Virus record (IMG/VR): IMGVR_UViG_2703718794_000007
Strand: one strand, 5' to 3'
Origin: a virus
Lineage: Duplodnaviria; Heunggongvirae; Uroviricota; Caudoviricetes
Length of the DNA: 39,067 bases
Shown piece by piece: positions 2,158 to 33,929 of the stretch (position 1 is the stretch's first letter; each line of letters opens with the position of its first letter). Under the pieces are notes generated by a model. That model searched no databases. It was not told the origin of the DNA and worked only from the letters and a program-made list of their open reading frames with translations. A program made the translations under genes and the position numbers.

Positions 2158-2161
2158 TTTG

Positions 2162-2746: not shown

Positions 2747-2755
2747 GCGGTTTCC

Positions 2756-3347: not shown

Positions 3348-3538
3348 AGCGACCTCCCTTAACGTGGTGTTGCCGCTATTCTAGATTGTACGATCCCTAA
3401 TTCCAACTAACAGCTCGCTCTGTGCGAAGAGTGAAAATTGAACTTTCAATAGTTGTTGAACTTCCATACATCCAATGTGAAAATTCATACGTTCATAATA
3501 GTTAAAATTTAAAATATTGTATATCAGGTGAATAAAGC

Positions 3539-4681: not shown

Positions 4682-5791
4682 TCACTCTGTTTCTGCTATC
4701 CATTCCGGGATTTTTGCCTCAAGCTCAAGCTGTGTGGTAAAGCCGCTGTTATCAATGGTGTGCTCGGCTTTTGCAATAATCCAGTCCTGATTATCAATCT
4801 CGCTTTTAAAGCCTGTTACCGTGCCATGCATTTCGGGGTAGAGTTCTGCGCGTCCGCGTGCCAGCATGATGGAGAATGATGCGGCTCCGCGTTGTAGCTG
4901 CTGCCACTTTGCCGCCGCTGCGCGTCTTGCTGCCTGCTCGTTCTGATAAGTCTTGCGTAACACAAACACATTGCCTTCCGCGCCTTCCATATAATCACCT
5001 TCACGGCTGCTGCTTTTCTCCTTTTTGGGTTTTGGCGGTTTGCGGCGTTTCACGCTGACTTTTTTCTTTTTCCCGTAATTAAGATCAAGCCAGTAGGCGC
5101 GTACACCTGTATACGCCTCGCGGTCAGCAATGCGGAACTGATGGCGATCGCCACTGCTGCGTGTAATGGCGAACGAGGGCAACGGCTGGCCCTGTGCGTT
5201 CACGCCACCACCTGGCATGATGAATAACAGATTGCCGCTTTTTACCGTGGTGATTGCGCCCAGCATTTCCGCCATGCGCGTAAGGAAGGACATGTCGCTT
5301 TCTTCGGTCTGGTCGGCGTGGTCGATTTCGATATCCATCAGCATTTCGCTGATTTGCGGTTTCAGACCATACCGATGAGCGATGGCGGATACCACACGCT
5401 CAACGGTCACATCATGCCAGGACACTTCACGTTTAACGTTAAATTCATCCCGAAAATCTGCGCTTCTGGCTGAAACCGTCAGCCTGTCCGGCGCTCCTTC
5501 GTGAGCGATTTCATCAACAATGTAAGTGCCTTTTTCTGTCAGCGGTTCTCCTTTCCAGCCAATGAGAACCGTCAGGCGCGCGCCCCGTGGCGGTAGCTGC
5601 AACTGACCATCCGCATCATCCAGCGTGATGGTGAGCTGGTCCGCTTCAAATCCCCGGTTGTCGGTCAGTGACAGGCTCATCAGGCGCTCTGCCACGCCGG
5701 ACAGTGTTTCCCCCTCCGCGAGAATATCAAAATCCGGCATTTTCACGGGGTCTGTGCTCTGACTGAGCAATTGCATGGTGGTATCGGTCAT
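4682..5791 (-). CDS. D: Tail/late control protein D (gpD)
   Basis: ORF 4682-5923; start placed at the in-frame MTDTTMQLL methionine with a GGGAGGG RBS; gpD family by memory. Confidence 0.85.
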   Translation of the reverse strand: MTDTTMQLLSQSTDPVKMPDFDILAEGETLSGVAERLMSLSLTDNRGFEADQLTITLDDADGQLQLPPRGARLTVLIGWKGEPLTEKGTYIVDEIAHEGAPDRLTVSARSADFRDEFNVKREVSWHDVTVERVVSAIAHRYGLKPQISEMLMDIEIDHADQTEESDMSFLTRMAEMLGAITTVKSGNLLFIMPGGGVNAQGQPLPSFAITRSSGDRHQFRIADREAYTGVRAYWLDLNYGKKKKVSVKRRKPPKPKKEKSSSREGDYMEGAEGNVFVLRKTYQNEQAARRAAAAKWQQLQRGAASFSIMLARGRAELYPEMHGTVTGFKSEIDNQDWIIAKAEHTIDNSGFTTQLELEAKIPEWIAETE

Positions 5792-5948
5792 CTGTTCCCT
5801 CCCTGTGCGGCATGGTCGCATGTGCGTGCGTAGGGGGTTACTGCTTTTTGTTGTCGCCGTGGCGGGAGAACGGCGCAGGGGTGAGATTACGCGCGTGGTG
5901 GGTGATGATTGTTGCCGAATCATTTAACGGATACAAGGGGCTGAAGCT

Positions 5949-7133
5949 ATGAGTGAAACTCGTTTTCATGGTGCCCGTGTTACGGAAAATACCGACCTGG
6001 TAACAGCGATTAACGATGTTGATTCCAGCGTTATCGGTATCGTGGCAACGGCGGATGATGCGGACGCGAAGCTGTTCCCGCTGAACAAGCCCACACTGCT
6101 GACCCGCGTCAATGACGTGCTGGGAAAATGCGGAACAACGGGGACGCTTTATCGTGCGCTTAAGGCCATCGCAGACCAGGTGAGCACAAAGGTGATCGTC
6201 GTTCGCGTGGCTGAACACAAAGAAGAAGACGGTAAGACGCAGGATCAACTGGTTATCGGTGGTTCTGAGGATGACGGCAGCTATACGGGGATGTATGCGC
6301 TGCTTGTTGCAGAGCAGGATGAAAGCATCGGATACCGTCCGCGTATTCTGGCCGCGCCGGAGCTGGACACGGAGGCTGTAACAAAATCCCTGTGCGTGAT
6401 TGCGGGTAAACTGCGCGCGTTTGTGTATGCCTCATGTCATGGCTGTGACACGATGGCTGATGCGATTACCTACCGCCAGAAATTCAACGAACGTGAGGTG
6501 ATGCTCTTATGGCCGGACTTCATCGCCTACAACCCGAAAAGTGGCAAAAACGAAACGTTCCCCGCGCCTGCCTATGCGTGCGGCCTTCGTGCGTACATTG
6601 ACCATGAGCAGGGATGGCACAAATCACTCTCCAACGTTCCGGTTAAGAATGTGCTGGGGATGTCGAGGCATGTGTTCTGGTCGTTGCAGGCCGAAGACAG
6701 TGATGCCAACAGCCTCAACAACAAAGAAATCACGACCATTATTCGTCGCAACGGGTTCCGCTTCTGGGGCAACCGCACACCGGAAACGAACGCCTACATC
6801 TTTGAGGTGTATACCCGAACCGCACAGGTGCTGGCTGATTCAATTGCGGAAGCGCAGTTTGAAACCATCGATAGTCCACTGACGCCTGCGAACGTGAAGG
6901 ATGTTATCAGTGCCATCAGGGCAAAACTGGATTCACTGGTTACTGCCGGGAAACTGATTGGCGCGGAGTGCTGGTATGACATCGTGGATAACAGCACCAC
7001 GAATTTACGTCAGGGGCGTGTGCGTATTCGCTACAAATATACGCCCGTTCCTCCGCTGGAAGACATGGAGCTTTACCAGTCGTTTACTGATGAATTCTTT
7101 GGTCCCGCATTTGCGGTGCTGGGAGGTGCCTGA
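5949..7133 (+). CDS. FI: Tail sheath protein FI
   Basis: 394 aa; FPLNKP, GWHK and FRFWGNRT motifs shared with P2 gpFI. Confidence 0.9.
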   Translation: MSETRFHGARVTENTDLVTAINDVDSSVIGIVATADDADAKLFPLNKPTLLTRVNDVLGKCGTTGTLYRALKAIADQVSTKVIVVRVAEHKEEDGKTQDQLVIGGSEDDGSYTGMYALLVAEQDESIGYRPRILAAPELDTEAVTKSLCVIAGKLRAFVYASCHGCDTMADAITYRQKFNEREVMLLWPDFIAYNPKSGKNETFPAPAYACGLRAYIDHEQGWHKSLSNVPVKNVLGMSRHVFWSLQAEDSDANSLNNKEITTIIRRNGFRFWGNRTPETNAYIFEVYTRTAQVLADSIAEAQFETIDSPLTPANVKDVISAIRAKLDSLVTAGKLIGAECWYDIVDNSTTNLRQGRVRIRYKYTPVPPLEDMELYQSFTDEFFGPAFAVLGGA

Positions 7134-11686: not shown

Positions 11687-12249
11687 ATGCTAAATAATAG
11701 AGATATGAATATTAATGAACTTAAAGATTGTATTCACTATGAAGTAATCGGTAGCGAGCGTCCTTTCTCTTGGCGAAAGGCAATTGTTCGCGCAATAAAA
11801 CATAGAAGGGTTCGTTATTTATTTTGGTGGCGCATAGCCAAATACTTTTTGATAAAGGCGGATACTGTCGGAAGATTGCGGGGAAAATAGAACGTTTCAT
11901 TCTTGATAAATATAATGTAACAGTCCCTTTAACTGTAAATATAGGGAAAGGCTTTGATATTTCTTATCTCAACAGTGTTGTTATCGGTCACAAAGTAACA
12001 ATCGGTGAAAATTGTTCAATAAAACCAGGGGTAACTATTGGGCTACGTGGTGATTTTAATGATATGGATATTGTTATAGGACATAATGTGACCATTGGTT
12101 GTAATGCCACCATTCTTGGTGGCAAAGTGCGTATAGGAAATAATGTCACAATAGGTGCTCATGCATTGGTATTGCATGATATTCCTGATGATTCAACATT
12201 CATCACTAAATTTCAGTCTGAAGTTATCTGCTCGTCCTCCCGTACATAA
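11687..12249 (+). pseudogene. Hexapeptide-repeat (WcaB/CysE-like) sugar O-acetyltransferase split by a frameshift
   Basis: ORF 11687-11890 carries the N-terminal YLFWWRIAKYF-type segment and ORF 11824-12249 the hexapeptide VIG/TIG repeats in another frame; AT-rich. Confidence 0.6.
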
Positions 12250-12836
12250 CCCTGATTCATCAGCTCTGGCCATACGATATCCGGAGCTGTACTGGTGTCA
12301 ATTCGACTCACTAATACTCTGTATTTTCTCCAGGAATCCAGTTGTGAATTTTCCTCGTTTGTTGCTATTTCAAGATTAACTGCATCCTGCAGAATTGCGA
12401 TGTTATCTGTTGCCTCCTGGATCAACCTTGCTTTTTTCTCTTCCGCTTCTCGTATCCGAAACAGTTTTTCTGCTTCCTCATCCTTCACCCAGGATACGCC
12501 GTCCCACCTCTGATACTCCCCTGCTGGCGACAACCAGGTGACATTCTCTGGTAGCGGTCCGAGTTCAGAAATAAACAATGCGTCCCCCGACGCCACGTCA
12601 TAGACCGTTTTACCACGATGGTCTTCAACAATATGCCACGATGCATCATCACTGTTGAAAACAGCCACGAAGCCAGCCGGAATATCTGGCGGTGCAATAT
12701 CGGTACTGTTTGCTGGCAGACCTGTATGAGGCGGAATGTATGCGTCACCTTCACCAATAAATTCATTAGTTCCGGCCAGCAGATTATAAATTGTTATGGT
12801 CCGTGGTTGTTCACTCATTCTGAAATCCATGTTCAC
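12213..12836 (-). CDS. Tail fibre assembly chaperone (gpG/Tfa family)
   Basis: 207-aa ORF downstream of the fibre genes; C-terminal [12 protein letters not shown] motif is typical of Tfa. Confidence 0.8.
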
Positions 12837-12838
12837 CT

Positions 12839-13741
12839 CTACTTAATATCAGAGACAGAATATTGTTTATTGAGCGTATGGGTGTGAGCACCAATAACGA
12901 TGCTACTTCCGTGGCTATGTGCGCCAGAGATGACATTACCTACGGGATTTTCTGGATTAATCCGGTGTATATGCGAACCAGGGCGAAACCGGTTATTAGC
13001 CTGATGTTGTATCAGTACATCATCAGCCTGATGTTCAGGGTTAATACAGACCTGCCCGGAACGTGAGCAATATGTCCGATAATCGCCGCATCCAATATAT
13101 TTAGTATCCGCATAACGGCAAACAGAATTACCCGGACAGTATGCATATGTGCCAAATACTGCCGACTGGCGGGATTGTGCGTATTCCCAGTTAATTGATT
13201 CTGTTTTTTTATTAAAGTTATCCCATGCCTGCTTCATCTGCCGGGCAACACTTTCAAACGGCACCTGACCACATCCGGCTCCCATTGCAGGGAATACCAC
13301 CGTTTTTATTTTCCTGTCTGTCGTTGCGTGTTTATTGTGCTGAAAGATGGCAAGCAGAGCGGCCCAGGTTGCGTTATATACAGCGTCTGTTCCGTCAATT
13401 GTCAGCGGAACACGCATTGTTGGCGCATGTACCAGCCAGGGATGATGATTATGCCCCGTTTCAATAACAAATGCAGAACCTACAGGCTGCTCGCCTAGAT
13501 ATTCACGAAGAATATGATTCTGAACGCGGGACTGTAACTGAGTACCGAAGAATGCGGTAATGGCGGCATCAACACCGCCATCCATCAGGCCGAAACTATT
13601 TGCCGCACTTACCATGCAGTCAAATTCCCTGATTGTTTCAAATGGCTTTCCGACAATATTCACATTATCTGCATTTGCGAATACCCGCTTAAATGCTTCA
13701 GCCATTTCTGTTACTGGTGCAGAAAGAATGAGCGTAATCAT
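12839..13741 (-). CDS. Macro-domain protein fused to a Cys/His-rich fibre-tip-like C-terminal domain
   Basis: 300 aa; N-terminal [17 protein letters not shown] and [14 protein letters not shown] match macro-domain motifs; C-terminus has three HxH motifs (GSHIHR, GAHSHG, GAHTHT) like those at the H C-terminus; ATGA-coupled to H. Confidence 0.75.
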
Positions 13742-15564
13742 GCAAGCCTCACAATATAGTTAAATGCGATGTTTTTGACAGTGTTTTCCGCGTTACCAGC
13801 AGCGTTAACGGTGATGGTGTGTCCATGTGAACCAATCGCAACAGAGTGCGTATGAGCGCCAATACCAACAGTGTGTGCATGTGCCCCAGCACTTGTAGCG
13901 GTACCTGATACTGAGTGGGTATGTGCGCCAGAAGAAGGCACAGTTCCATTCCCCACCACCGTGCCACTTGATGAACCATCCAGCCAGTCGAAATTCATAC
14001 CGCCACTGTTTGATCTCCTTAATGGAACGGTATGAGTATGTGCGCCAGCACTATTTGCAGTACCAGATACATTATGGGTATGTGCACCTGTGTTATTCGT
14101 TGATTTAGTACCGTAATCAAACGACGATGTGGTTTTCGTACCCAAATCCGTACTGGATGCGCTGGCGCTGTGGGTGTGCGATTTAATGCCATCCTGTTCC
14201 TGAGACAATACGGCCCGACCAGTGGCGGGTTTTCCTTTGATTGTCCAGCCACGCATATCAGGGAGCACACCAGAGGGATAAGCTACTGCAAGTTTCGGGT
14301 ATGCTGATTTGTCAAAAGCCTGTCCCACCATGATAGCGTAACCGTCAGGCGGCGTATCTGACGGCCACGGCAGAGGTATTCCCGGTGGTAATGCTTCAAT
14401 TCCCTTTGTGCCATCAAAAGCAACACCACTGATGGGGTGTGCTGTTTCCAGTTTACTTGCAGATACTGCGTTACCTGTTGCGGATAATGCGCCAATATCC
14501 TGCACTGTGGGCTTGTTTTTATCCGTGTAAGTGCGGTACCAGATGGTTTTTTTTCCCTTGTCCAGTATCACCCCGGTAAATTGTGCCCGGTGTTCTTTTG
14601 TGGTCGGATCTGAATCTTCCAGCCCTGTGGTGATCCTGACTATTCCGCCGATGATTTCGCCAAACACTTCAATCAGGCAGCCGCCCAGGCCGATATCACC
14701 GTACCCCGTGTCAGTAAGCACGCAGTGCTGTGACAGCGAAATATTAGCCCTGAATATCCAGCTCCCTGTTCTGAAGGCGCCACGCTCATTCAGCCACTCC
14801 ACGAATTGTTCCGTTGTCCAGCGTTGTCCTGCTTTACCTATGTACCCGTTTTTTGCATAAACGCGTGGTGTGCCCACGTTGATCAGGAACAGCTCCTTGT
14901 TGGGGATGTCCTCACCATTGCGGTTTTTCGCAAGCCGACCATCAGCGTTGTCCATGGCGATCTTTATGGCCTTTGGCGTGGCTGCCTGGGTCTCTGATGT
15001 ACTGGTGGTGTCGCTGCTTAACTGAGTAAAACCTTTTGTGGTCAGCGAGGCATCCGGGTGACGTCGTGACTGTTCATGCTCTTTCAGTTTGTCATCCACG
15101 TAATCCACTGTGGCCATCACCATGGTGTTATCCACGGTAAGCGCCACGGTGGCAGTGCTGGATACGGTCAGAATGGTGCGAAATGTTTGTGCACGTCCGG
15201 ACCCTTCGGCAACGGTTGGTTTGTAACTTTCGGCAGTATTGCCCACCGCGATTAAATCGCCGTGCTCATCAAATACACCAATTTCCCGGATCCAGAATCC
15301 GCCCGTTTCAGGAGGAATAACCAGCTCCGCAATAATGCGGTTCTGATGTGTTGCGTCCAGGATGACGCGATTAACAGTGTTTCGCCACACCTCATGCACC
15401 AGACGGATCTGCTTACTGTCTGGTGTGGGCAACGTGCCGCCACCGTCGCCCACGGCCATATGAGTCAGGCGGACAGGCTTACCATCTGGCGCGGCTGCCT
15501 GAGCTAATTTTTTTGCACCCGTATCGGTGATAACGGTTTTAAATTTTCGTGTTGTGGTACTCAT
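13738..15564 (-). CDS. H: Tail fibre protein H
   Basis: 608 aa; conserved N-terminus and C-terminal GAHTH repeats. Confidence 0.85.
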
Positions 15565-15566
15565 GC

Positions 15567-16097
15567 TTAATCGCCTGGATAAATGGTAATAACTTCACCG
15601 TCATAAGTTGCCGCCGCTGCGAAAATATCCCCCGGAATTTCCTGAATGATATTCAGCCCTGTCATGTGGCGGCTGACCGGACGGGCATCAGCAATCAACC
15701 GCTCCATTTCCAGATACATTTTCTCCGTCACGCCACTGTCCAGTGTGCCGACTTCAACGGTAAATGTTCCCGGTTCTCCGCCGAACTCCCACCACTCAGA
15801 CACGCGAATGAGGTATCCCAGCGGTTCAATGGCCCTGCGCAGTGCGCTGATGGTCCCTTTGTGTCGGTGTATCAGCCATGCATCACGAATAACCTGTCGC
15901 TTTGTCTCTTCCGGCCAGTTGCGATCCCAGCGGTCAACGGAAAATGCCCAGGCGAGATAAGGCAGCAGATGCACCGGGCAGGTGTCCGGCGACCACAGCG
16001 TGTTGAGGTCTACCGGGATGTCTGTAATGCGCGCTCCGACAGCTTCGGCACAACGCATGAAATTGCTGGCTGATGGCGGTAACAGTGAATTACTCAT
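15567..16097 (-). CDS. I: Baseplate protein I
   Basis: ORF 15567-16130; start placed at in-frame MSNSLLPP; position between J and H. Confidence 0.8.
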
Positions 16098-16986
16098 TAC
16101 GCCCACCTTCGCTGATGGTGAATGACTCACAGCGCGCCGCCTGTATGTCGCTGATGGCCATATTCTGTGTAGGTTCGATTATCTCCACGCGTTGCACACC
16201 GTGCACATGCAGTGCGGCAGCAATGGCGGACAACGCCACGTCCTGACCGATAAGCCCCTGCTCAGCCAGCCACTTCCTGAACGACGATTCAGCCGCAGCC
16301 AGAATAGGTTCGGATTCCGGACCGGGGTAAAAGTACAGTTTTGCATTCAGCCGCCATGTCACGATGCTGGCGCTCTGTACGGTCAGGCGGTCGGCCACCG
16401 GGCGGGTATCCTCTGCATTCAGAACGGCGCGAACGGTATTAAGCAACGCCTCCGTTGCTGTGCCGTCGCCTTTAGTGGACAGAATGGAAACCGTCACATT
16501 TGCCGGAGACGGACTGATAGCCCGCGCATCACGCACCAGACCGCTGGCGCTGCGGGCAAAATACTCGTATGCACCTGACGGGCCAGCAACACTCAGGCCG
16601 TCGTACGCCCGCTGCGCCCGCAGTCTCAGCGAGGTGTCGCTCTCCATCACCGCGTCGGTGGTATCCGTTGCCGGAGTGATAACCAGGCGCTTTGTGTTCA
16701 TATTGCCCGCGAGGTTGTCCAGGTCTGTCCCGGCGCTGTGGCTTAACATGCAGGCGCGTGCACCCTCATTGACCCGCTGGCGTAACAGCATTTCACGAAA
16801 CGCTGTTGTCTGGGCGATAACGTTCAGTGGTTCCGATTCCAGCTCCAGCGCGGCGGAGACGGCTTCACGCTGTTCGGCGGGATAAGCCGCAATCATCATG
16901 GCCTTTGTGTCAGCCAGAATTGCCTCAAAGTCAGGCTCCGCGATGATGGCGGGGTCCGGTAACTGTGAAAGGTCAACGGCGGGCAT
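16090..16986 (-). CDS. J: Baseplate wedge protein J
   Basis: 298 aa between W and I; P2 gpJ size and position. Confidence 0.85.
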   Translation of the reverse strand: MPAVDLSQLPDPAIIAEPDFEAILADTKAMMIAAYPAEQREAVSAALELESEPLNVIAQTTAFREMLLRQRVNEGARACMLSHSAGTDLDNLAGNMNTKRLVITPATDTTDAVMESDTSLRLRAQRAYDGLSVAGPSGAYEYFARSASGLVRDARAISPSPANVTVSILSTKGDGTATEALLNTVRAVLNAEDTRPVADRLTVQSASIVTWRLNAKLYFYPGPESEPILAAAESSFRKWLAEQGLIGQDVALSAIAAALHVHGVQRVEIIEPTQNMAISDIQAARCESFTISEGGRNE

Positions 16987-23975: not shown

Positions 23976-25727
23976 ATGATTCAGGACGCTTTTGTGCGCC
24001 AGCGTGCGCGGCAACTTTACTGGCAGGGTTATCCGCCCGCAGAAATATCACGTCTGATGGGAATAAACCCGAACACGATTTATGCGTGGAAAAAACGTGA
24101 CCAGTGGGATGAAACGCCACCCGTGCAGCGTGTCACGCAGTCCATCGATGCGCGCCTCATCCAGCTTACTGAAAAACAGAATAAAACAGGCGGTGACTTT
24201 AAGGAAATAGACCTGCTGACCCGGCAGCTTAAAAAGCTGCATGATGGCCAGCCGGATGTGATGGCCGCAGGAAAGAAAGGCCGGGCGAAAAAACTCAAAA
24301 ATCATTTCACGCCGGAACAGATTGCCGCACTGCGGGAAAAAATCATCAGCAGGCTGGAGTGGCATCAGCGGGGCTGGTTTGACTCCCTGACCCTTTGCAG
24401 GGAAGCCGGGATACGTAACAGGATGATCCTGAAATCCCGACAGATTGGGGCGACCTGGTATTTTGCACAGGAAGCACTGCTGATGGCGCTGCGTGACGAT
24501 GTGGCGCAACCTTACCAGCGTAACCAGATTTTTTTGTCTGCGTCGCGTCGTCAGGCGTTCCAGTTTAAAAGCATTATTCAGAAGGCCGCGGCTGAAGTTG
24601 ATGTGGAGCTGAAAGGGGGCGATAAAATCATCCTCTCCAACGGCGCAGAGCTGCATTTTCTCGGCACTTCTGCTGCGTCGGCACAGTCCTATACGGGCAA
24701 TTTTTATTTTGATGAATTTTTCTGGGTCAGTCGCTTTGCTGAACTGCGCAAGGTGGCTGGCGCTATGGCAACCCTCAGCGGACTGCGGCGCACCTACTTC
24801 TCCACGCCATCCACCGAAACGCACGAGGCATACGCCTACTGGAACGGCGACCGCTGGAACGAGAAAAAGGCCTCGCATAAACGCCAGCGTTTTTCTGTGG
24901 ACTGGAAAACGCTGCATAACGGGCTTATCTGCCCTGACCGGACGTGGCGGCAAATTGTCACGCTGGAAGATGTGGTTAATCACGGCTGGAAACACACCGA
25001 TATCGACGAAATTCGTGATGAAAACACCGAAGACGAGTTCCTCAATCTATATATGTGTGAGTTTGTCCGCGAAGGGGAATCGGCATTTAACCTGAATATC
25101 CTGATTGGCTGCGGTGTTGACGGATACGACGACTGGAAAGACTGGAAACCTTTTGCTCCCCGCCCGATGGGGAATCGTCCGGTATGGATTGGGTATGACG
25201 CAAACGGCAGTAGTGGCAACGGCGACAGCGGCGCTGTGTCCGTGGTGGTTCCTCCGGCTGTTCCTGGCGGCCGTTTTCGAACAGTGGAGACGCGACGCGT
25301 TCAGGGGCTGGAGTTTGAAGAACAGGCCAGAGTCATTGAAGAGTTCACGTGTCGCTACAACGTGGAACACATCGGCATTGATGTGACGGGCGGGAACGGG
25401 GAGGCTGTTTATCAGATAGTGAAGCGGTTTTTCCCTGCTGCTATTCCGTACACCTTCACGCTGTCATCAAAACGGTCGCTGGTACTGAAAATGCTGCAAA
25501 TAATGCGTGCCGGGCGGTGGGAATACGATCGCGCCGAACGCGAGCTGGTCGCGGCCTTTAACGCCGTGCGTAAGGTGAAAACACCGGGCGGCTTTATCAC
25601 TTACGAAACGGACCGCGCGAGGGGGATCAGCCACGGCGACCTTGCGTGGGCAACCATGCTTGCTGTCATTAACGAACCAATTGGCGGCGAAGGAGAAAAC
25701 GAGCGTTTCATGGTTATGGAGTTCTGA
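23976..25727 (+). CDS. P: Terminase ATPase large subunit P
   Basis: 583 aa, divergent from O. Confidence 0.9.
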   Translation: MIQDAFVRQRARQLYWQGYPPAEISRLMGINPNTIYAWKKRDQWDETPPVQRVTQSIDARLIQLTEKQNKTGGDFKEIDLLTRQLKKLHDGQPDVMAAGKKGRAKKLKNHFTPEQIAALREKIISRLEWHQRGWFDSLTLCREAGIRNRMILKSRQIGATWYFAQEALLMALRDDVAQPYQRNQIFLSASRRQAFQFKSIIQKAAAEVDVELKGGDKIILSNGAELHFLGTSAASAQSYTGNFYFDEFFWVSRFAELRKVAGAMATLSGLRRTYFSTPSTETHEAYAYWNGDRWNEKKASHKRQRFSVDWKTLHNGLICPDRTWRQIVTLEDVVNHGWKHTDIDEIRDENTEDEFLNLYMCEFVREGESAFNLNILIGCGVDGYDDWKDWKPFAPRPMGNRPVWIGYDANGSSGNGDSGAVSVVVPPAVPGGRFRTVETRRVQGLEFEEQARVIEEFTCRYNVEHIGIDVTGGNGEAVYQIVKRFFPAAIPYTFTLSSKRSLVLKMLQIMRAGRWEYDRAERELVAAFNAVRKVKTPGGFITYETDRARGISHGDLAWATMLAVINEPIGGEGENERFMVMEF

Positions 25728-26773
25728 TGAGCAGAAAAAATAAAAAAGTGCGCATGAGTTCACGCATTGATCTCGCTGATGCGCTCAGGAAAGAATCATC
25801 GCTCAGTGCATTCACATTTGATGGTCCTTATCGCCTGACCGGGCATGACCTGCTGGACAATATGTACTGTGCTGATAACGGGCGGTGGTATGAAACCCCG
25901 GTGGACTGGTACGGTCTGGCAAGAGCAGCCCGGCAAACGTCCTGGCATCAGTCTGCGCTTTACTTTAAGCGCAATGTATTACTCGGTTGCTACATCCCGC
26001 ACCCGCTGCTTTCCCGGCAGGATTTCTCGGCGCTGGCGCTGGACTGGTTTGTGTTCGGTAACGCATTCCTTGAGCTTCGAAGCAATATGCTCGGCGAACC
26101 GCTTAAATTACGGCACGCCCTGGCGAAATACATGCGACGCGGAAGCGATCTTGAATCATGGTGGTATGTGCAGGATGGCAAGGACGCGTTTCAGTTTCGT
26201 CCTGGCAAAGTGTGCCACCTGATGAATCCGGATATTAACCAGGAAATCTACGGCATGCCGGAATATCTTGGCGCATTACTCTCGGCCAGCCTTTCTCATT
26301 CGGCGGACATGTTCAGAAAACTGTACTACGACAACGGATCCCACGCCGGGTGCATCATCTACATCGGTGCAGCGCAGGTAAACCGCGAAAGCATGGACTC
26401 CCTGAAAGAAACGCTACAGGGGGCACGTGGTGGTGGTGCGTTTAAAAACGTGCTCATTCATGCGCCCAACGGGGGCAAAGAGGGGGTGCAAATTTTGCCG
26501 TTCCAGCAGATCACCGCAAAAGATGAATTCATGAATGTTAAGGCGGCATCCCGTGATGATGTGCTGGCTGCGCACCGCGTTCCGCCGCAACTGATGGGGG
26601 CGATGCCGGGCGAAAAAAGTGCGTTTGGCGATGTGGAGAAGGCAGCGCGGGTTTACGCAATTAACGAGCTGATGCCCGTCATGGAGGCTATGAAGCACAT
26701 CAATGACTGGCTTGGCGAAGAGGTGATCCGTTTTAACTCTTATGCTCTTCTTGATGAAAAAACAGCCCCGTGA
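25727..26773 (+). CDS. Q: Portal protein Q
   Basis: 348 aa, overlapping the P stop. Confidence 0.9.
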   Translation: MSRKNKKVRMSSRIDLADALRKESSLSAFTFDGPYRLTGHDLLDNMYCADNGRWYETPVDWYGLARAARQTSWHQSALYFKRNVLLGCYIPHPLLSRQDFSALALDWFVFGNAFLELRSNMLGEPLKLRHALAKYMRRGSDLESWWYVQDGKDAFQFRPGKVCHLMNPDINQEIYGMPEYLGALLSASLSHSADMFRKLYYDNGSHAGCIIYIGAAQVNRESMDSLKETLQGARGGGAFKNVLIHAPNGGKEGVQILPFQQITAKDEFMNVKAASRDDVLAAHRVPPQLMGAMPGEKSAFGDVEKAARVYAINELMPVMEAMKHINDWLGEEVIRFNSYALLDEKTAP

Positions 26774-26787
26774 TGGGGCTATCCTTT

Positions 26788-27312
26788 TTACCAGAGTTGA
26801 ACCATTTTCTGGGTGCCGTCAGGCTTGAGATTATCAATTTCAGAGAGAACGTAATATTGAATGGCTTCACAAACGGTGGTGTAGGGTGAATTACCTTCTT
26901 TAAGTGGCACGATATTATTATTAACGCGAACCTGTATTTCATCGTTATACATTGCGATCGAAACAGGAGTGTGCACGAACGCGACTTCGCCAGGTGTGTC
27001 GTCAACCACCGTTTCAATACTAAAAGTCAGTTTTCGCTCATCATTGCTGCCCCGTGCTTTGGGGGTAGCGGCAGGGATCTGGGATAAAGGCATTCTGCGA
27101 AATCCTTCGGCTGCTTCCAGTCCGCATGAAACGTAATGCTGGCGATTACCGTCGCTATCTGTCCAGGTCTGTGATGGCAGCTCCAGCGAGATTTCATAAG
27201 CATCAACAATGCCCTGGGCAAGGCGTACAAGCGGGGTCAGATCTTCATTGCGGCGAAAGCTCTCCTTTACCAGCTCCCGTTTTTCTCTTAACTGCTTGTA
27301 ATTAATGACCAT
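26788..27312 (-). CDS. Hypothetical protein between the portal gene and the presumed cos region
   Basis: ORF 26788-27351; start at MVINYK with a GGAGG RBS; convergent with Q, 14 bp apart. Confidence 0.55.
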   Translation of the reverse strand: MVINYKQLREKRELVKESFRRNEDLTPLVRLAQGIVDAYEISLELPSQTWTDSDGNRQHYVSCGLEAAEGFRRMPLSQIPAATPKARGSNDERKLTFSIETVVDDTPGEVAFVHTPVSIAMYNDEIQVRVNNNIVPLKEGNSPYTTVCEAIQYYVLSEIDNLKPDGTQKMVQLW

Positions 27313-27811
27313 AAGACAGCCTCCATTGATTTCTTTGCTCGTATTTTGCACTTATGAAGTATGGTCGGCAAGGTGCCGTATCGCTGACGCGCTTCGCTTG
27401 TCTGCTGCTTCGCCGGGGCATAAAAAATTTATGCCCCGGCTCTCCAGCTCCTGTATCAATCAGATAATTTCACGACGCCTTCCAGTTTATCGCCACCATC
27501 GACGGTCAGACTCTTACGCAATTCCACCGCGTTGACTGTATGTTCTCGCTGCCTCAGTGCGATTTTGACGGCCTTACCTTTCACCCCATCAAATCAAAAG
27601 CCCTCACGCCTTTTTCATGCTCAGCGTGAGAAATATGGCCATTCTGTTGTGTCTCTGCGACATCGTTCAGGGAATGCTATTTACCCCCTGAAACGCGGGC
27701 TGTTCCCCCGTCACCTGCGCGCAGAAAAAACGCGTTTTTTTGTGCACGCACGGATCCTTGACGGATCCAGCCGCCACGCGGGCCGGAAGGGCAAAAAGTC
27801 GTTCAAAAAAA

Positions 27812-27848
27812 TTGTGCAAATTTGTGCACTATTGTGCATTGCGCACTT
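27812..27848. repeat. Three TTGTGCA direct repeats at exact 10-bp spacing plus a GCGCAC variant
   Basis: TTGTGCA at 27812, 27822 and 27832; contains the palindrome TGCAAATTTGCA. Confidence 0.5.
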
Positions 27849-27857
27849 GTTATAAAT

Positions 27858-27886
27858 AAACAAAAAAAGAGCCGCTATTGCGGCTC
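27858..27886 (-). terminator. Intrinsic terminator of the HTH-peptidase/PIN operon
   Basis: On the minus strand, 7-bp stem GAGCCGC/GCGGCTC followed by a T-run, 34 nt after the PIN stop. Confidence 0.6.
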
Positions 27887-27919
27887 AATATAATCCAATA
27901 TGGCAAGAGAGATTTGGAT

Positions 27920-28438
27920 TCATTCGAAACTGGCAAGAATCTGTTCTCGAACAGAAGATTTCATCGTTAACCCACGATCTAGGAAAAATTGGAAATGCAT
28001 TAAGGCTTGTTGTTTGTGGATAAGTCTCCTGTGCACAGCCTCTTGAAGTAGCCCTCCGTGGCGGGCGGCTTTTACACCGCGTTCCGCACACGTTTTATAA
28101 ACCGCATTATCCGCCGAAAGACATGTTGCATCATGTATTCTCGCGTTAACAACGCAGCTTATGTCCGCATACTTCAATGCTCTCCTGCGATTTTTTATCT
28201 CAGCCATTTCAATAAAATGTTCAGGTTCGTAATCATTGGTGAAATTGTATGGAAGTTGCAGGCGTGTAAGCTGTTCCTGAACATCAAGATTGTATTTAGC
28301 TTTTAGTTCCTCGCAGACATAGGGGTCAATCCACACACCACCCGGGTAAATTTGCCAGATAAGATCTAAGCATTTACCTTCGTAAAAATCAGACAGTACA
28401 TTCGTATCGATAACACATCTGGGGCATTCAAACGGCAT
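27920..28438 (-). CDS. PIN-domain protein (putative toxin/nuclease)
   Basis: ORF 27920-28471; from MPFECPRCVIDTNVLSD it shows the PIN-type N-terminal Asp motif and a later HDAT acidic motif; start overlaps the upstream gene. Confidence 0.7.
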   Translation of the reverse strand: MPFECPRCVIDTNVLSDFYEGKCLDLIWQIYPGGVWIDPYVCEELKAKYNLDVQEQLTRLQLPYNFTNDYEPEHFIEMAEIKNRRRALKYADISCVVNARIHDATCLSADNAVYKTCAERGVKAARHGGLLQEAVHRRLIHKQQALMHFQFFLDRGLTMKSSVREQILASFE

Positions 28439-29573
28439 CCTCTCCGGCCTCCTGTTCGTCGTACCATTCATCCAGAAGATTGCTGAGAGCTTTTCTGTCT
28501 AATTCTAAAAGTTCAGATATGAAGGTTTCCGACGCGGAACCGGCTTCCCATGCTTTACGCGATAAGACGGTTAGGCGGCCTTTATAATTTAGTGCTTCCC
28601 TAATGGGATTTGGCTCGTGTCTCTTCCAACCTTTACGATTGGCGGTTGCCCATAGGTATCTAGTGTTTTGTTGATTAATTAAATTACATTTACTAAGACG
28701 ATCGATGATGCAAGTGGCTGATACTCTGAAAATGCTTTTTAGTCTAAGGACGGTTTCCTCATACGCCCATCCACCACCTTGCATGACGAATTGTTTTCGC
28801 AATGCGCTTTCTGGTACCAAAAAACAAGCAGCAAAGTGATTAGCAACTTTTTCTTCCGGTGAAATTGCTTTGCCATTGGTTTTATAGCTTTTAGCAGGGC
28901 CATCATACTCATCACGGTGGAAGATAAGATGAGCATATTCATGGCAAATACTGAAGATTTGACGTTCTATTGAAATGCTATCGTGAACATTTACATAAAT
29001 CGCGGTACCGTATTTGTTCGAAAACGCAGAAAATCCGAATACCATCCCTTTATCAGTTTCTTCGCGATTGAACGGGATTACTCGAATATCCGATGCTTCC
29101 AAAATGGCTACAATGTCACCAACGCAAGTAGCGTTTCCTATACCGAGACGGAAACGTTCTTCCATAGCCTTATCTTCGACTCTTCGCAAATCTTCTGCTT
29201 TGGCGGTAAAAATAGGCATTGAGTTAGGAAGATCTTCTGGCAAATTAGCATCTGCAGCTTCCTCAATTGCATTGATATTTTTTAACTTTTCAATCAACTC
29301 ATTGCGAAGTTTGGCATCCAACAAATCCGGACTATCTGCTCGCATTGCAAAACGAAACTCGCCATCATCTTGCTCATAAAAATACCCGATAGGCTTATCG
29401 AAAATCTTGCAGAGCATGATGAGTTGGGTAACGCTTGGGACGCCTAGCGCCTGCTCAAACTTACTGTAGGTTTGACGAACAACACCGATCGCATCTGCGA
29501 CGGCGCTTGCACTCATTCCTGCGTCGTTTCTGGCCTGAACCAAGCGTTCTGCTATACGCTGTTGAATGTTCAT
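28428..29573 (-). CDS. XRE-family HTH fused to an ImmA/IrrE (COG2856) zinc metallopeptidase
   Basis: 381 aa; N-terminal helix-turn-helix (MSASAVADAIGVVRQTYSKFE) and HEYAH zinc-binding motif mid-protein. Confidence 0.75.
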   Translation of the reverse strand: MNIQQRIAERLVQARNDAGMSASAVADAIGVVRQTYSKFEQALGVPSVTQLIMLCKIFDKPIGYFYEQDDGEFRFAMRADSPDLLDAKLRNELIEKLKNINAIEEAADANLPEDLPNSMPIFTAKAEDLRRVEDKAMEERFRLGIGNATCVGDIVAILEASDIRVIPFNREETDKGMVFGFSAFSNKYGTAIYVNVHDSISIERQIFSICHEYAHLIFHRDEYDGPAKSYKTNGKAISPEEKVANHFAACFLVPESALRKQFVMQGGGWAYEETVLRLKSIFRVSATCIIDRLSKCNLINQQNTRYLWATANRKGWKRHEPNPIREALNYKGRLTVLSRKAWEAGSASETFISELLELDRKALSNLLDEWYDEQEAGEDAV

Positions 29574-29754
29574 ACGTCACCTGAATTTAACAATGGTGGC
29601 TCTTATGGGTTTAGATTGGTTAATTATTACTAACATTATGAATGGAGAGTTGCAAAAATCATAGTTAAATTATGCAAATTTCATGGAGCGTGATGTGGTG
29701 TGGGTTCACACTCTCTGCTGATTACATCTAGGGCGGTTTCCGCCCTGGCTCTGC

Positions 29755-30066
29755 TTACTCAGGAAATAGCGCCCGGATATTTCCGGCCATCTGACTGGTT
29801 ATCTGTGCGGTTGATACTGGCTGTGATGCGGGGCGTTCTGTCCTAGTTTGTGTCACTGATAACGCTTCATCATCAGCCCATGCAGCCAGTCGGTAAGCCT
29901 CTGCCGGATTCATTTTCAGAAGTGCCAGCCCGGCCAGAAAAGCCACACGTTGGCCGCTTTTGCGGGCTTCTGGTGTAAGGCTGTCCAGCCAGGCGCATGC
30001 TTCGCCTTCGTTCTTTACGGCGGCGGGCTTCAGATAGAAACTTATTCGTCTGGTTGGTGTCGTCAT
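29755..30066 (-). CDS. parR: ParR-like partition adaptor
   Basis: ORF 29755-30201; from MTTPTRRISFYLKP the sequence matches my recollection of R1 ParR (LDS..ER...AFLAGLAL, C-terminal LFPE); directly after parM. Confidence 0.7.
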   Translation of the reverse strand: MTTPTRRISFYLKPAAVKNEGEACAWLDSLTPEARKSGQRVAFLAGLALLKMNPAEAYRLAAWADDEALSVTQTRTERPASQPVSTAQITSQMAGNIRALFPE

Positions 30067-30070
30067 TGGT

Positions 30071-31030
30071 TTACTCCTTGTCCATTGCGTACAGCCCATT
30101 AACCAGAGCAAACTGTGGCACCCCGTCCGCGATGAAAGTCGCATTAACTCCGCAGGCTTCGCGGATAGCGGGTGCCACAATCTCCGCCCCGCCACCGACA
30201 ACCATCACCCGCCCGTAACCCGAAAAACCCGCCAGCGCGCGGATCACGCGTTGTTTCAGTGTTTCTTCCTTTTCACGAATAACCGCCATCAGGCTGGCGT
30301 AATGCGCGTCATTGTGGATGTGCTGGCGCAGCCAGGCTTCATCATGGCGATGTTCGATAATGGTATTGGCGATGTGGTGACTGGTACGCATACCGTTAGT
30401 GGCCATCACCGACAGTACGGCATCGGCCATCAGGGAAACGCCTACGTGTGGATCGCAAAACACCTGGCTGATACCTGCCAGTTGTCCCTGAACCTTTGCC
30501 ACATCCAGCGTGGTTCCGCCCAAATCCACAATCAGCAGGGATTCAAACGGACTCATGTCAGCCAGTGCTTTAAAACCAGCCGGAATGGATTCAGGCATAA
30601 CCCGTACGTTACGGATAGTGAATGCTTGTCCGTTCTGGTAGGCCACCGGGCGCATGACGTTTGCTTTTTTGCGGTTGATGTTGGCCATGTCCGGCTGTGC
30701 GTTTGTGTCGAAATATTCGCTCAGTGGCAGGGTGACAACCACATCCACCTCCTGTGGTGTGATGCCTGATTTGACCAGCGCGTGATGAATGGCAATGACA
30801 TTCACATCGCTGTACTGGTATTGCGTGTCGGTCGTCTGGACAAAGCGATCGCTGACCGGATCAAAACCATAGCGCACGCCATCAAGCATGTAGTTCGCGG
30901 GCTGCGTGCCACCGAACGGCGCAGACCATTCCGACTTGAAGCTGTTCGGGCTGATGGCGTTGCGGCGTTCGCCGTTCTCAGTCCATGCCAGCTTGATGTT
31001 GGTGGAGCCGTCATCGATACAAATTTTCAT
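30071..31030 (-). CDS. parM: ParM/StbA-like actin-fold segregation ATPase
   Basis: 319 aa; MKICIDDGSTNIKLAW, VMPESIPAG, LIVDLGGTTLD and VVGGGAEI match ParM motifs. Confidence 0.8.
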   Translation of the reverse strand: MKICIDDGSTNIKLAWTENGERRNAISPNSFKSEWSAPFGGTQPANYMLDGVRYGFDPVSDRFVQTTDTQYQYSDVNVIAIHHALVKSGITPQEVDVVVTLPLSEYFDTNAQPDMANINRKKANVMRPVAYQNGQAFTIRNVRVMPESIPAGFKALADMSPFESLLIVDLGGTTLDVAKVQGQLAGISQVFCDPHVGVSLMADAVLSVMATNGMRTSHHIANTIIEHRHDEAWLRQHIHNDAHYASLMAVIREKEETLKQRVIRALAGFSGYGRVMVVGGGAEIVAPAIREACGVNATFIADGVPQFALVNGLYAMDKE

Positions 31031-31061: not shown

Positions 31062-31170
31062 TTTACGGGATTCTGAAATCCCGTTTTTGCCTGTTTTATG
31101 CGCGCTTCATATATCGCGGCGCGTTTTTTGCTCATTTACGGGATTTGTGAATCCCGTTTCTGTCTGTTTT
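31062..31170. repeat. Two 36-bp direct repeats, each an 8-bp-stem dyad followed by a T-rich tail
   Basis: Copies at 31062-31097 and 31135-31170 (ACGGGATT-N4-AATCCCGT); copy 1 is between the A stop and parM start, copy 2 is inside the last codons of A. Confidence 0.45.
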
Positions 31171-33929
31171 TTGTTTCCACTGGTCAGGCCACCCCGCAGC
31201 AGGTCTGCTTTGCGGCGGGCGCGTTCAGTGGTTTCACTGATTCTCTGTGCGTGCTCTGCGTCGCGGATGGCGCGCAGCATGTCAGAAAGCACGGTAACGG
31301 GGGTTTTCATGGTGTTCTGGTCCTGCTGAAGTGTGGATGCCAGGCGTGCGGCGGCTTCGGGGTCTGATGCCCCCAGCTGTTCCAGATAGCTGGCGACCGG
31401 GTTATGGCGGATCTCCGTGCTGCTTACGCCGTGGTTACGGCTCAGGCGCTGCCAGAGATGCGTGATCCGGCTGTCCGGTCGGGTATCCGGTTTGCGTACA
31501 ATTTCAAATCCCTGCGGTGCAATGATGCTGCCGTCAACGTACAGACTGCCGCCCCGTAACAGGTGCTGCATCTGCTGTTCACCGATATGCAGGCCGAGAG
31601 ATTCAGCAGACTCCCGCCATTCTTTAGCGAGTAATTCGTGGTTATCAGGCAAAGGCCGCTGCTGTTTGCGGCTCTGTGTCCAGCTCTGCATTTCATCACT
31701 GCTGTTTTTTACCTGTTTGTCACGAAGCGAACGCATCAGCGCCCGGCGTTCGTGCCGTTTCAGTGAGCGCATCCATTCGTTCACTTCAACGCCGTCAGGG
31801 AGTTGCGGCCACGGTGCTGGCCGTTCTTCCGGCTGTTCTGTCCCGTTGTTGTCCGTTTCCTGTACACGGGGACAGTTATTGCCACGAGTCCAAGGGGCGG
31901 CAGGGCCGCCCTGAAGGTCAAAACCATTTTCGCGGGCGCTGTCTTCCGCTTCCGGTTTACGTCTTACCAGCTTCCAGTTATCCGGGTGCGTGCACACGCG
32001 GGAAGACTCCCCGATGAGCGGCGACCAGATCCCGTAAATCTGTACACTCTGCTCGCCGTAATCGTTCATCTCATCTGCGAGGTCGTAGGCGGTGCGAATC
32101 AGGTAGTCTTTGCGTGGAACAAGTACGCCACCCTGTTTCTCAATGTAGGTGGCAAAACATCCGGCATCAGCGGCAGCGAGTACCGCGTCCATTGCGTCAT
32201 CCTTCAGCCGTTGCGGGCCTTCCGGGTTGCGTGCCATCTGGCTGGCAAGGCGGCGCAGTTCACGCCACACCTGACGGGAGGGGATACCAAAGAACTGGAA
32301 CTGGCGGACCCGGTGAAGGCGCGCCCAGCCGATGGCGCGTTCCACGCTCTCGGCCATTGATTTTCCGGTTTCGTGGTCAACGCGTGGCTTGCCCGTTTTC
32401 GGGTCGATGCCATCCACGGCGCGGCTGTCCAGGTTCTTTCCGATGTAGGTGGCGATGTAGCTGGTTGGTGTGCCTTTTGAGCCGTCGACATACTCCACCT
32501 TAAAGCGCGGAGTAATATCATTGCCCAGCTCGTGGCGGTCTTCCTGAATGGCAATATCGCGGGTGATGGCCACGATGCTGTCGATTTCTTCCGGATGAGC
32601 AAAGACCATCATGTGCCAGTGCACGGTGCCGTCATGGTGAGGCTCCACCGTGCGGATGCCATACCAGCGCAGGCCGTCGCGGTTCAGTTTTTTGCGGACC
32701 GCCGCAAAAAACGTGTTAACCAGGTAATCGCTGGAGTCGCGCATGGTGGCCCCGTTCCATTTGGGGTTCGGATGACCGTTCTCCGTTGTTGCGTGGTATT
32801 TTGACGGGCAGGTGACAGTCAGAAACACCGCTCTGTCGCCACGGGCTTCGGCCAGAAGTTCCAGTCCCTTCATGGTGGCCATCATTTCTGCCTTACGGTG
32901 AACCGGGTTACTTACTCCCGCGTAATACACCGTCTCGAGATCAATCGTGAACCCGTCTTCATTTTCCAGCATGAAACTTTTCAGGAAATCGCGTGTTTTC
33001 TCGCGCTGTGCGCGAAACTCGCTTAACGCGTCCTGGCTCAGATAGGGCGATGTTTTTCTGGAAACCAGACAGGCGGCGCGGAGTTGTTCTTCTCTCCACT
33101 CGCAACGTACCAGCCACAATTTGCGTTTCCACCATTCCGCACAGGTCAGGCGAAGGATTGCGCCCGGCAGCAGCTCCGTGTCCGGTTCGTTCCTCCGGTC
33201 TTTGTCTGTTGTCAGTGCGTCATAATGTGGAGGCATGGCGTGCAGGTGTAACGCCATGCGGGCCAGCATCTGATACGCCTTCAGCGTTACATCCATGGTC
33301 AGTTCACCATCAGTCGCGCCAAAGCCATCGCAGAGTTTTTCGAAGGTGCTGCTGAACATCGCCGCCGTCATGGTGGCCAGCGTCTGTATCTGGTGTTTGT
33401 TGAGCTGCGGCAGGTAAAGCAAATCGTCCAGGCGTTCGCGTCCGGCAAGGGAGCGATAACCCGGTGTCAGCCAGCGTCCGTCAGTGCGATCCAGACGTTC
33501 GAATATTTTGCGCAGGGTTCCGCGTGCATAGCGTTCCGCCTGCCAGCTCTTTTTGCCTTTCCGGCGATCGGCTTCCTGTTTTTTGCGCAGGAAGGAGAGG
33601 TGGCGAATAAGCGGATCGCGCAGATAGGACGGCAGCAGGCGCAGCGAGGCCATGGCTTCATCCACCGCGCCGCGTGCCTGTTTTCTGGCGTCTCCTGCCA
33701 GTGTGATGGTTTTGTCCTGTTTTTCCTGTGCGTCCAGGCTTTTATTAATCAGGCCGCCCAGCGGCGTGGCGGAGAACGCCGCATCAGCCATTTCCTGGCG
33801 GCGCTCGTTCTCTGCCCGGTAGGCATCCAGCCAGGAGGAAAGCGCGGATTCAGGAGCGGGGATCCCCGTTCCTTCACGCCCCACTGCGTGGCGCGGTTGT
33901 TGCCAGTCCCTGATGTACTCTGCCGTCAT
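31107..33929 (-). CDS. A: Replication initiator A (rolling-circle HUH endonuclease)
   Basis: 940 aa; HWHMMVF and YIATYIGK motifs typical of the P2 gpA family. Confidence 0.8.
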   Translation of the reverse strand: MTAEYIRDWQQPRHAVGREGTGIPAPESALSSWLDAYRAENERRQEMADAAFSATPLGGLINKSLDAQEKQDKTITLAGDARKQARGAVDEAMASLRLLPSYLRDPLIRHLSFLRKKQEADRRKGKKSWQAERYARGTLRKIFERLDRTDGRWLTPGYRSLAGRERLDDLLYLPQLNKHQIQTLATMTAAMFSSTFEKLCDGFGATDGELTMDVTLKAYQMLARMALHLHAMPPHYDALTTDKDRRNEPDTELLPGAILRLTCAEWWKRKLWLVRCEWREEQLRAACLVSRKTSPYLSQDALSEFRAQREKTRDFLKSFMLENEDGFTIDLETVYYAGVSNPVHRKAEMMATMKGLELLAEARGDRAVFLTVTCPSKYHATTENGHPNPKWNGATMRDSSDYLVNTFFAAVRKKLNRDGLRWYGIRTVEPHHDGTVHWHMMVFAHPEEIDSIVAITRDIAIQEDRHELGNDITPRFKVEYVDGSKGTPTSYIATYIGKNLDSRAVDGIDPKTGKPRVDHETGKSMAESVERAIGWARLHRVRQFQFFGIPSRQVWRELRRLASQMARNPEGPQRLKDDAMDAVLAAADAGCFATYIEKQGGVLVPRKDYLIRTAYDLADEMNDYGEQSVQIYGIWSPLIGESSRVCTHPDNWKLVRRKPEAEDSARENGFDLQGGPAAPWTRGNNCPRVQETDNNGTEQPEERPAPWPQLPDGVEVNEWMRSLKRHERRALMRSLRDKQVKNSSDEMQSWTQSRKQQRPLPDNHELLAKEWRESAESLGLHIGEQQMQHLLRGGSLYVDGSIIAPQGFEIVRKPDTRPDSRITHLWQRLSRNHGVSSTEIRHNPVASYLEQLGASDPEAAARLASTLQQDQNTMKTPVTVLSDMLRAIRDAEHAQRISETTERARRKADLLRGGLTSGNKKQTETGFTNPVNEQKTRRDI

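Follow-up and report, generated by a model that had tools for sequence, protein, structure and literature searches.

Operons that combine a COG2856-Xre fusion protein with a toxin gene have been predicted to be toxin-antitoxin (TA) systems. COG2856-Xre fusions abound in prophages and often share an operon with a PIN or RelE toxin, and a three-component TA system was proposed for these operons (Makarova 2009). The PIN clusters that are co-transcribed with helix-turn-helix (HTH)-DUF955 proteins are COG2405/DUF3368, DUF4411 and PIN_14/20/26, and it was proposed that the protease cuts the fused HTH, by which the PIN gene is switched on (Matelska 2017). In NetFlax, the ImmA-type antitoxin node D25 is paired with PIN-like domains (Ernits 2023). 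We identified a gene pair of this kind, encoding a 381-aa HTH/M78 metallopeptidase fusion and a 172-aa PIN-domain protein, at positions 27920-29573 of IMG/VR virus record IMGVR_UViG_2703718794_000007 (39,067 nt; this whole stretch is called the window below), which, judged by its sequence, is a P88-like (Xuanwuvirus, Peduoviridae; P2-family) prophage of Escherichia coli. The pair is probably an autonomous TA or abortive-infection module of the Xre-COG2856/RosmerTA class that has a PIN RNase as its effector and is carried as cargo by the prophage.

Experimentally validated systems with an antitoxin of similar build form the Rosmer family. RosmerTA was described as a Zn-peptidase antitoxin with a toxin of unknown function, and rmrA could not be deleted (Millman 2022); rmrA is essential where a Rosmer system is present. 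RosmerTA protects against phages, and its RmrA acts as antitoxin to diverse RmrT toxins (Millman 2022, Ernits 2023). A different RosmerTA, the RmrTA of Gordonia phage Kita, was validated by Ernits 2023, and neutralisation in this class works in trans from heterologous promoters (Ernits 2023). In addition to the system of Millman 2022 and Kita RmrTA, the members include pneumococcal RipAB (2025) and an E. coli E101 prophage module (Rousset 2020/2021). The M78 proteases ImmA, IrrE and CapP cleave Xre/HTH repressors after DNA damage (Ernits 2023, Matelska 2017). RosmerTA-type systems are widespread in phages and bacteria.

Both open reading frames (ORFs) of the pair are located on the minus strand. 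The locus consists of the following features (AF2, AlphaFold2):

28428..29573, minus strand: HTH/M78 fusion gene, 381 aa (ORF, Pfam, PADLOC RmrA, phrog_2439, AF2 model)
27920..28438, minus strand: PIN-domain gene, 172 aa, of the DUF3368/COG2405 cluster, putative RNase toxin (Pfam PIN, PF11848 of the homologues, AF2, Foldseek)
28428..28453, minus strand: translational-coupling junction with AGGAGG at 28448-28453, the PIN ATG at 28436-28438 and the antitoxin stop TGA at 28428-28430 (sequence, RefSeq start)
27859..27886, minus strand: intrinsic terminator, GAGCCGC-AATA-GCGGCTC followed by T7, that closes the operon (terminator scan, sequence)
29574..29730, minus strand: AT-rich region upstream of the operon, with the presumed promoter and operators (repeat search)

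The longest form of the PIN ORF starts at 28471, ends at 27920 and encodes 183 aa. The ATG at 28438, which gives a protein of 172 aa, is the likely start and is preferred over 28471 because an AGGAGG lies 9 nt upstream and because RefSeq uses the same start for WP_032234544.1 (172 aa) at the 100%-identical locus of E. coli 2013C-3181. With this start the PIN gene overlaps the stop of the upstream antitoxin gene by 11 nt, in line with the overlap of start and stop that the initial annotation of this DNA had described. At the homologous loci the called genes overlap by 4-17 nt, and the two reading frames of the Pantoea latae locus overlap as well. The terminator scan also recovered the intrinsic terminator that had been reported to end the pair, as a hairpin at 27886-27869 with a 7-bp stem (6 G-C pairs), a 4-nt loop and a T7 tail. 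Given the predicted translational coupling and the private terminator, the PIN and HTH/M78 genes are a two-gene operon. A repeat search of the upstream region identified an inverted repeat, AATTTAAC...GTTAAATT, with arms at 29660-29671 and 29584-29595, together with a third TTAAC element; ATAATTAAC and GTTAA are kept in the Pantoea and Enterobacter copies of the locus.

The 381-aa protein had been annotated from its translation as a protein with an XRE-type HTH and an HEYAH zinc-peptidase motif, and both assignments hold. Pfam recognizes HTH_3 (aa 13-65, E 3e-8) and Peptidase_M78 (aa 193-293, E 1.5e-11), and the HEYAH motif is read at aa 211-215 (nt 28929-28943). The AF2 model (mean pLDDT 85.8) divides the protein into four parts:

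29379..29573, minus strand: Xre-type HTH domain, aa 1-65 (Pfam HTH_3; model helices 3-58; Foldseek)
29325..29357, minus strand: conserved linker motif FRFAMRADSPD, aa 73-83, with invariant R78 (homologue alignment; low-confidence model segment)
28779..29198, minus strand: M78 peptidase core, aa ~126-265, with the zinc site H211-E212-x-x-H215 (nt 28929-28943) and E241 (conservation, fold)
28434..28760, minus strand: all-helical C-terminal domain, aa 272-380 (AF2 helices, pLDDT >90)

In Foldseek searches the N-terminus matched the HTH domains of SinR, P22 C2 and DdrO (rmsd 1.3-2 Å) and the peptidase core matched the folds of CapP (7t5t), IrrE (3dte) and PprI (8slm). In 38 homologues, whose identity goes down to 23%, no change occurs at H211, E212 or E241 and conservation at H215 is at least 90%; HEYAHLIFHR is the most conserved block of the protein. 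The linker between HTH and peptidase is flexible in the model (pLDDT <50 at aa 70-79). R78 within it is invariant in the same 38 homologues, and its motif, hydrophobic-F/M-R-A-D-x-P, also aligns in a protein of known structure (PDB 9vzy); we hypothesize that the linker is a cleavage or docking element. The C-terminal helical domain is a candidate toxin-binding region, and both this domain and the HTH are kept in a copy of Ca. Pantoea deserta from which the peptidase has been deleted.

Fourteen RmrA (RosmerTA antitoxin) models of PADLOC match the 381-aa protein, the best with an E-value of 2.8e-35, and the RmrA match runs nearly end to end (aa 4-321 against model positions 9-315 of 383). The protein also matches phrog_2439 (E 2e-45), and it matches the NCBIfam 'spr1629 family repressor/antitoxin' at 86 bits, far under the cut-off of 335. 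We therefore regard the fusion as a putative RmrA-like antitoxin that may also serve as autorepressor and sensor. A phmmer search of the PDB with the single antitoxin sequence gave no match, and a search with the antitoxin profile matched 9vzy over its full length (E 1e-31). This entry is a solved 393-aa 'HTH cro/C1-type domain-containing protein', a homologous full-length HTH-M78 fusion, and may be the first structure of a Rosmer-type antitoxin; a literature search for 9vzy found no paper.

The downstream ORF had been called a PIN-domain protein, and this fold was recovered by AlphaFold and Foldseek. The AlphaFold model, built on 16 homologues, has a mean pLDDT of 94. Its best Foldseek matches in the PDB are VapC-type PIN proteins (1y82, VapC4 5h4g, 3h87, VapC21 5sv2) and HARP (7og5), a PIN-type minimal RNase P, at TM scores of 0.5-0.6 and 14-20% identity. 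The acidic positions D11, E43/E44, D92 and D110 do not vary among 16 sequences of 55-87% identity, and an extra helical extension is present at the C-terminus (aa ~127-171). The homologues carry precomputed Pfam matches to PF11848 (DUF3368 = COG2405). A search of the current Pfam library no longer gives PF11848 for the PIN protein of the window, so the DUF3368 assignment rests on these precomputed matches of the homologues. No PHROG or NCBIfam family was found for the PIN protein, and its PADLOC match was a weak one to the candidate PDC-S70 (E 2.5e-4). The profile and structure searches that the initial annotation had proposed as a check on itself thus found both folds, and the PADLOC model search gave RmrA for the fusion and only the weak PDC-S70 match for the PIN protein.

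The pairing of the two genes is conserved far beyond E. coli. At all eight distinct loci analyzed by script, a PIN gene adjoins and overlaps the antitoxin gene, with the antitoxin down to 31% identity; since adjacency with overlap recurs in all eight, the arrangement is not a chance one. PIN-family genes are located directly 3' of the antitoxin homologues P0077 (Lamprobacter, 40%), P0078 (42%), P0091 (34%) and P0097 (31%), and full-length orthologues are kept at 31-42% identity. The genomic contexts are unrelated. The pair of Lamprobacter (L002) adjoins an MmeI-type restriction-modification gene and a DEAD helicase, another (L004) is part of a Mu-like phage, one on a metagenomic contig (L007) is found near YhcG and NikA-like genes, and in Pantoea latae (L011) the two genes alone are inserted, with an MFS transporter on one side and a PQQ glucose dehydrogenase on the other. 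The copies of Ca. Pantoea deserta (L012) and Enterobacter BRE11 (L013) have the upstream sequence of the P. latae locus in common. Because the pairing is kept down to 31% antitoxin identity and in unrelated contexts, the pair appears to be an autonomous module. The reading of the pair as TA-like, which the initial annotation had put forward, is thus sustained by the RmrA matches, the conserved pairing and the literature on the class. The pair represents a divergent enterobacterial subfamily that forms a single 50%-identity cluster, and only seven clusters were obtained at E ≤ 1e-10 in 1.8 billion representatives. A 3,106-aa match in this representative search (P0119) was disregarded as a repeat artefact. 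A peptide-pattern scan of genome contigs, with derived patterns that were narrow, found three loci only.

Degraded copies were also found. In Ca. Pantoea deserta (5532-6471 of the locus) the antitoxin has an in-frame deletion of profile positions 46-265, which is the whole peptidase core; its PIN protein is largely intact and is without the last ~20 C-terminal residues. The PIN protein of Enterobacter sp. BRE11 (5956-6396) is without profile positions 62-98, including D92, beside an intact antitoxin, and the C-terminus of the PIN protein in the Mu-like phage is frameshifted. A 139-aa gene after P0078, with no Pfam match, was considered as a different toxin; this was rejected, as it is a PIN homologue with a frameshifted C-terminus. 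The metagenomic contig (1-5571) carries, besides the HTH-M78/DUF3368 pair, another HTH-M78 fusion gene (370 aa), whose end lies ~4 kb upstream of the pair; two paralogues are thus present in one neighbourhood.

When compared with described systems, the pair shows the same architecture as the Xre-COG2856 + PIN modules: an HTH-M78 fusion with HExxH, followed directly downstream in the operon by a co-transcribed single-domain DUF3368/COG2405 PIN protein with four conserved acidic residues. We found no structural difference between these modules, whose members are often located in phages or prophages, and the pair; the class itself is a predicted one only. The pair is best filed under this Makarova/Matelska class, with a probable mode of action like that of Rosmer systems, and the pairing, described bioinformatically in 2009 and 2017, is of a known predicted kind. 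With RosmerTA it shares an antitoxin of ~380 aa composed of an Xre HTH and an ImmA-like Zn-peptidase, matched by the RmrA profile, and an organization of two genes with a variable toxin that is often prophage-borne. It differs in that the toxin is a PIN nuclease, whereas the validated RmrTs are membrane-depolarising (Kita), target DnaN (RipA) or are without a recognisable domain. It differs also in gene order: here the antitoxin precedes the toxin, whereas the toxin E101_02645 precedes 02644 and the HigB-like gene of PD-lambda-2 precedes the Xre-peptidase gene, an order that is typical and not strictly defining. Because the PIN protein matches no RmrT and the order is antitoxin-first, the PADLOC models would not call the pair a complete RosmerTA.

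The likeness to VapBC consists of a VapC-like PIN fold with an acidic tetrad, an antitoxin-first order, overlapping genes and a DNA-binding antitoxin. VapB antitoxins, however, are small (~70-90 aa) RHH, AbrB or Phd proteins with a disordered tail that binds the toxin, and the partner here is a 381-aa HTH-metallopeptidase; the helical C-terminal extension of the PIN protein is a further difference. ImmR/ImmA of ICEBs1, DdrO/IrrE of Deinococcus and CapH/CapP of CBASS have the M78 fold and zinc site in common with the fusion, with an Xre repressor as likely substrate, and provide a precedent for a stress or DNA-damage cue that switches a protease on. In these systems repressor and protease are separate and the output is the transcription of other genes, whereas in the pair they form one chain with a co-transcribed nuclease, and no separate small HTH gene is present in the cargo slot. 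IrrE has a GAF domain, whereas the fusion has its all-helical C-terminal domain.

The window places the pair in a variable slot of the prophage, with the gene order portal, phrog_5091 gene, cos-proximal conserved DNA, PIN/HTH-peptidase operon, stbB/parM and gpA. The surrounding features are:

25727-26773, plus strand: portal gene (Pfam/PHROG)
26788-27351, minus strand: phrog_5091 gene, 187 aa, hypothetical (phrog_5091, E 3e-66)
27842..29754, no strand: variable cargo slot, from the cos-proximal conserved DNA to the stbB stop (homology break, GC content, other cargo in relatives)
29755-31030, minus strand: stbB + parM partition cassette (StbA_N/ParM, E 6e-82; Plasmid_stab_B, phrog_2515)
31107-33929, minus strand: gpA replication gene, 940 aa (Phage_GPA, aa 179-503)

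Homology to the deposited P88-like phages ends at ~27841, and one record begins at ~27793, which is probably cos. The P2 cos sequence GGCGAGGCGGGGAAAGCAC had no match in the window with up to three mismatches, and cos was therefore placed by homology to the P88-like phage records. In P88 and vB_EcoM-569R5 other small genes are located between cos and stbB, and parM, stbB and gpA are conserved. GC content is 40-44% across 27800-29600 versus 52-60% in the flanks. Of 5,426 complete E. coli genomes, 32 carry the pair, each on the chromosome and 26 of them with the same flanks; ~1,446 genomes match the slot flanks. Neither megablast with the pair nor tblastn with the PIN protein found a match among 50,697 phage records and 72,556 plasmids.

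The region had been likened to the old/tin accessory locus of P2, and the slot indeed has the same position in a P2-family prophage, between replication gene A and cos, and is variable among P88-like phages. The locus of the pair is listed among the 'P2-encoded loci' in Table S5 of Rousset 2022, where the slot was shown to be a defence hotspot. P2 Old (an ATPase-TOPRIM nuclease) and Tin are unrelated to the pair in sequence and mechanism, and P88-like phages differ from P2 in keeping an extra parM/stbB cassette between gpA and the slot. The pair itself is absent from the table of tested systems of Rousset 2022, and the words Rosmer, PIN and peptidase do not occur in the main text of a 2026 NAR paper on P2/P4 hotspots. 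The pair is a reasonable defence candidate in a well-known hotspot. Two other assignments were rejected. The parM/stbB cassette was considered as part of the module, and it is conserved in P88-like phages that carry other cargo; the HTH-peptidase was considered as a lysogeny repressor or antirepressor, and the prophage has its own cox/C/integrase switch. In E. coli 2013C-3181 (NZ_CP027312, L001; locus 12061-16857) gpA is frameshifted and parM/stbB are short remnants, and the pair is intact and 100% identical. An intact pair in a decaying prophage is compatible with selection for the module or with resistance of the module to loss.

In the explanation that we favor, the HTH would repress the operon's own promoter at the TTAAC repeats, and the 381-aa protein would hold the PIN nuclease inactive, most likely by direct binding via its C-terminal domain. 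Infection by a phage or DNA damage would provide a cue that activates the peptidase, as with ImmA, IrrE and CapP, and the activated peptidase would cut its own fusion protein, possibly within the conserved FRAD linker; in an alternative version, the cue would stop the resupply of antitoxin. The freed PIN protein would then cut cellular or phage RNA (tRNA, rRNA or mRNA), which would halt growth and abort the competing phage, with stabilisation of the prophage as a side effect of PIN release. The protease-gating step, which the initial annotation had also suggested, is inferred. The most specific version of the mechanism, in which the fused M78 domain senses a phage cue and cuts its own chain at the FRAD linker, so that the operon is derepressed and the RNA-cleaving PIN protein is released, is rather unlikely to be correct in full. 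If true, it would be the first mechanistic model for the triggering of Rosmer-class 'protease antitoxins', in an easily assayed effector background.

Several observations weigh against a TA module of the Xre-COG2856/RosmerTA class that works in this way. A consensus sigma-70 scan of the minus strand upstream of the operon found no promoter, which is why the promoter and operators of 29574-29730 are presumed ones. Self-cleavage at the linker is purely conjectural. The antitoxin-first gene order is the reverse of that of the E. coli E101 system and PD-lambda-2, and the PIN protein matched none of the PADLOC RmrT models even at E ≤ 10. The Kita RmrTA complex was not predictable by AlphaFold (Ernits 2023), and the action of RipB depends on ClpX. 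The Pfam PIN match of the 172-aa protein is marginal (24.9 bits versus a cut-off of 23.6); for this reason the fold was checked by structure prediction, which settles it. In the literature we found no experimental characterisation of the pair or of any version with a PIN toxin, and a full-text search for the pair's protein accessions returned no paper.

The clpX/clpP dependence of other Rosmer toxins suggests, as the main mechanistic rival, an enzymatic antitoxin, in which the peptidase would continuously cleave or mark the PIN protein and host ClpXP would complete its degradation, with no self-cleavage and no stable complex; the toxin would build up when the antitoxin is blocked or no longer made. 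In S. pneumoniae, E. coli E101 and Pectobacteriaceae, clpX or clpP becomes essential in the presence of Rosmer-type toxins, the Kita RmrTA complex is not predictable as a stable interface, and conservation within the fusion is highest at the peptidase active site. The loss of the peptidase core in Ca. Pantoea deserta beside a largely intact PIN protein hints, on the other hand, that the activity is not needed for neutralisation, an ambiguous point as that PIN protein is without its last ~20 residues, and the M78 relatives ImmA, IrrE and CapP cleave HTH repressors, not effectors. We consider this account doubtful and worth some weight. The chance is smaller that the pair is a pure addiction module which stabilises the prophage, or a possible episomal form of it, without an anti-phage role. 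The pair adjoins the parM/stbB partition cassette, it has outlasted gpA and parM/stbB in 2013C-3181, and its stand-alone chromosomal copies behave like selfish TA elements. The parM/stbB cassette, however, is conserved in P88-like phages whatever the cargo of the slot, so the adjacency comes from the position of the slot; moreover, the slot is documented as a hotspot of defence genes, anti-phage activity has been validated for members of the antitoxin class, and no copy was found on the 72,556 plasmids.

It is very unlikely that the pair is a stress-responsive switch of the ImmR/ImmA or LexA type with the PIN protein as a regulated, non-toxic nuclease, for example in phage RNA processing. A LexA-like regulator reading was raised for COG2856-Xre fusions by Makarova 2009, and the peptidase fold matches the regulators IrrE and CapP. 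Against this stand the prophage's own cox/C switch, the occurrence of the pair outside phages between housekeeping genes, and the VapC toxins as closest structural relatives of the PIN protein. The pair is also present in 32 genomes only versus the ~1,446 that match the slot flanks, and is therefore dispensable for the phage. That the pair is an inactive passenger, a decaying remnant, has the least to commend it and hardly any probability: decaying copies do exist, namely those without the peptidase (Ca. Pantoea deserta), without the D92 segment (Enterobacter sp. BRE11) or with a frameshifted PIN gene (Mu-like phage), but the copy in the window has both reading frames intact and all catalytic residues, the ribosome-binding site and the terminator, and full-length orthologues are kept at the 31-42% identity given above.

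If it is an Xre-COG2856/RosmerTA module with a PIN RNase, the experimentally validated Rosmer family would gain a branch with a PIN effector. The PIN version would be a convenient model for Rosmer triggering, with a known fold, simple catalytic mutants and readable RNA cleavage products, and it sits in a native E. coli prophage hotspot already known for defences. Beyond this, the two genes are a further example of cargo in a well-described hotspot, and no concept is changed.

Some further observations were made on the remainder of the prophage. An actin-type ParM/StbB segregation cassette is curious in an integrating P2-family phage, and it might point to an episomal stage. The 148-aa ORF of this cassette is probably a gene of ~103 aa, as annotated in P88. 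The C-terminal half of gpA (~440 aa) has no Pfam assignment. The phrog_5091 gene is annotated as hypothetical in 397 E. coli genomes and is absent (a difference of ~615 nt) from the 26 genomes that share the hotspot arrangement and from 2013C-3181; because it is absent from those 26 genomes, the window combines two variable segments. Beyond tail gene D (4682-5923, minus strand), the region 1264-4561 encodes a VasI-like protein (PF11319, E 3e-25), a zinc-ribbon protein (2162-2494) and a 340-aa protein (3539-4561, plus strand) whose match to HEPN RiboL-PSP is below threshold (E 1.6e-4; 22 bits versus 28.4). This region gave no PADLOC matches and is a possible second site of cargo or defence genes, at the opposite end of the prophage. 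Between the partition cassette and the upstream region of the operon, directly after the stbB stop, a perfect hairpin without a T-tract (AGGGCGG-TTT-CCGCCCT, 29731-29747) is present, which possibly acts as a weak terminator or marks a recombination boundary of the slot.

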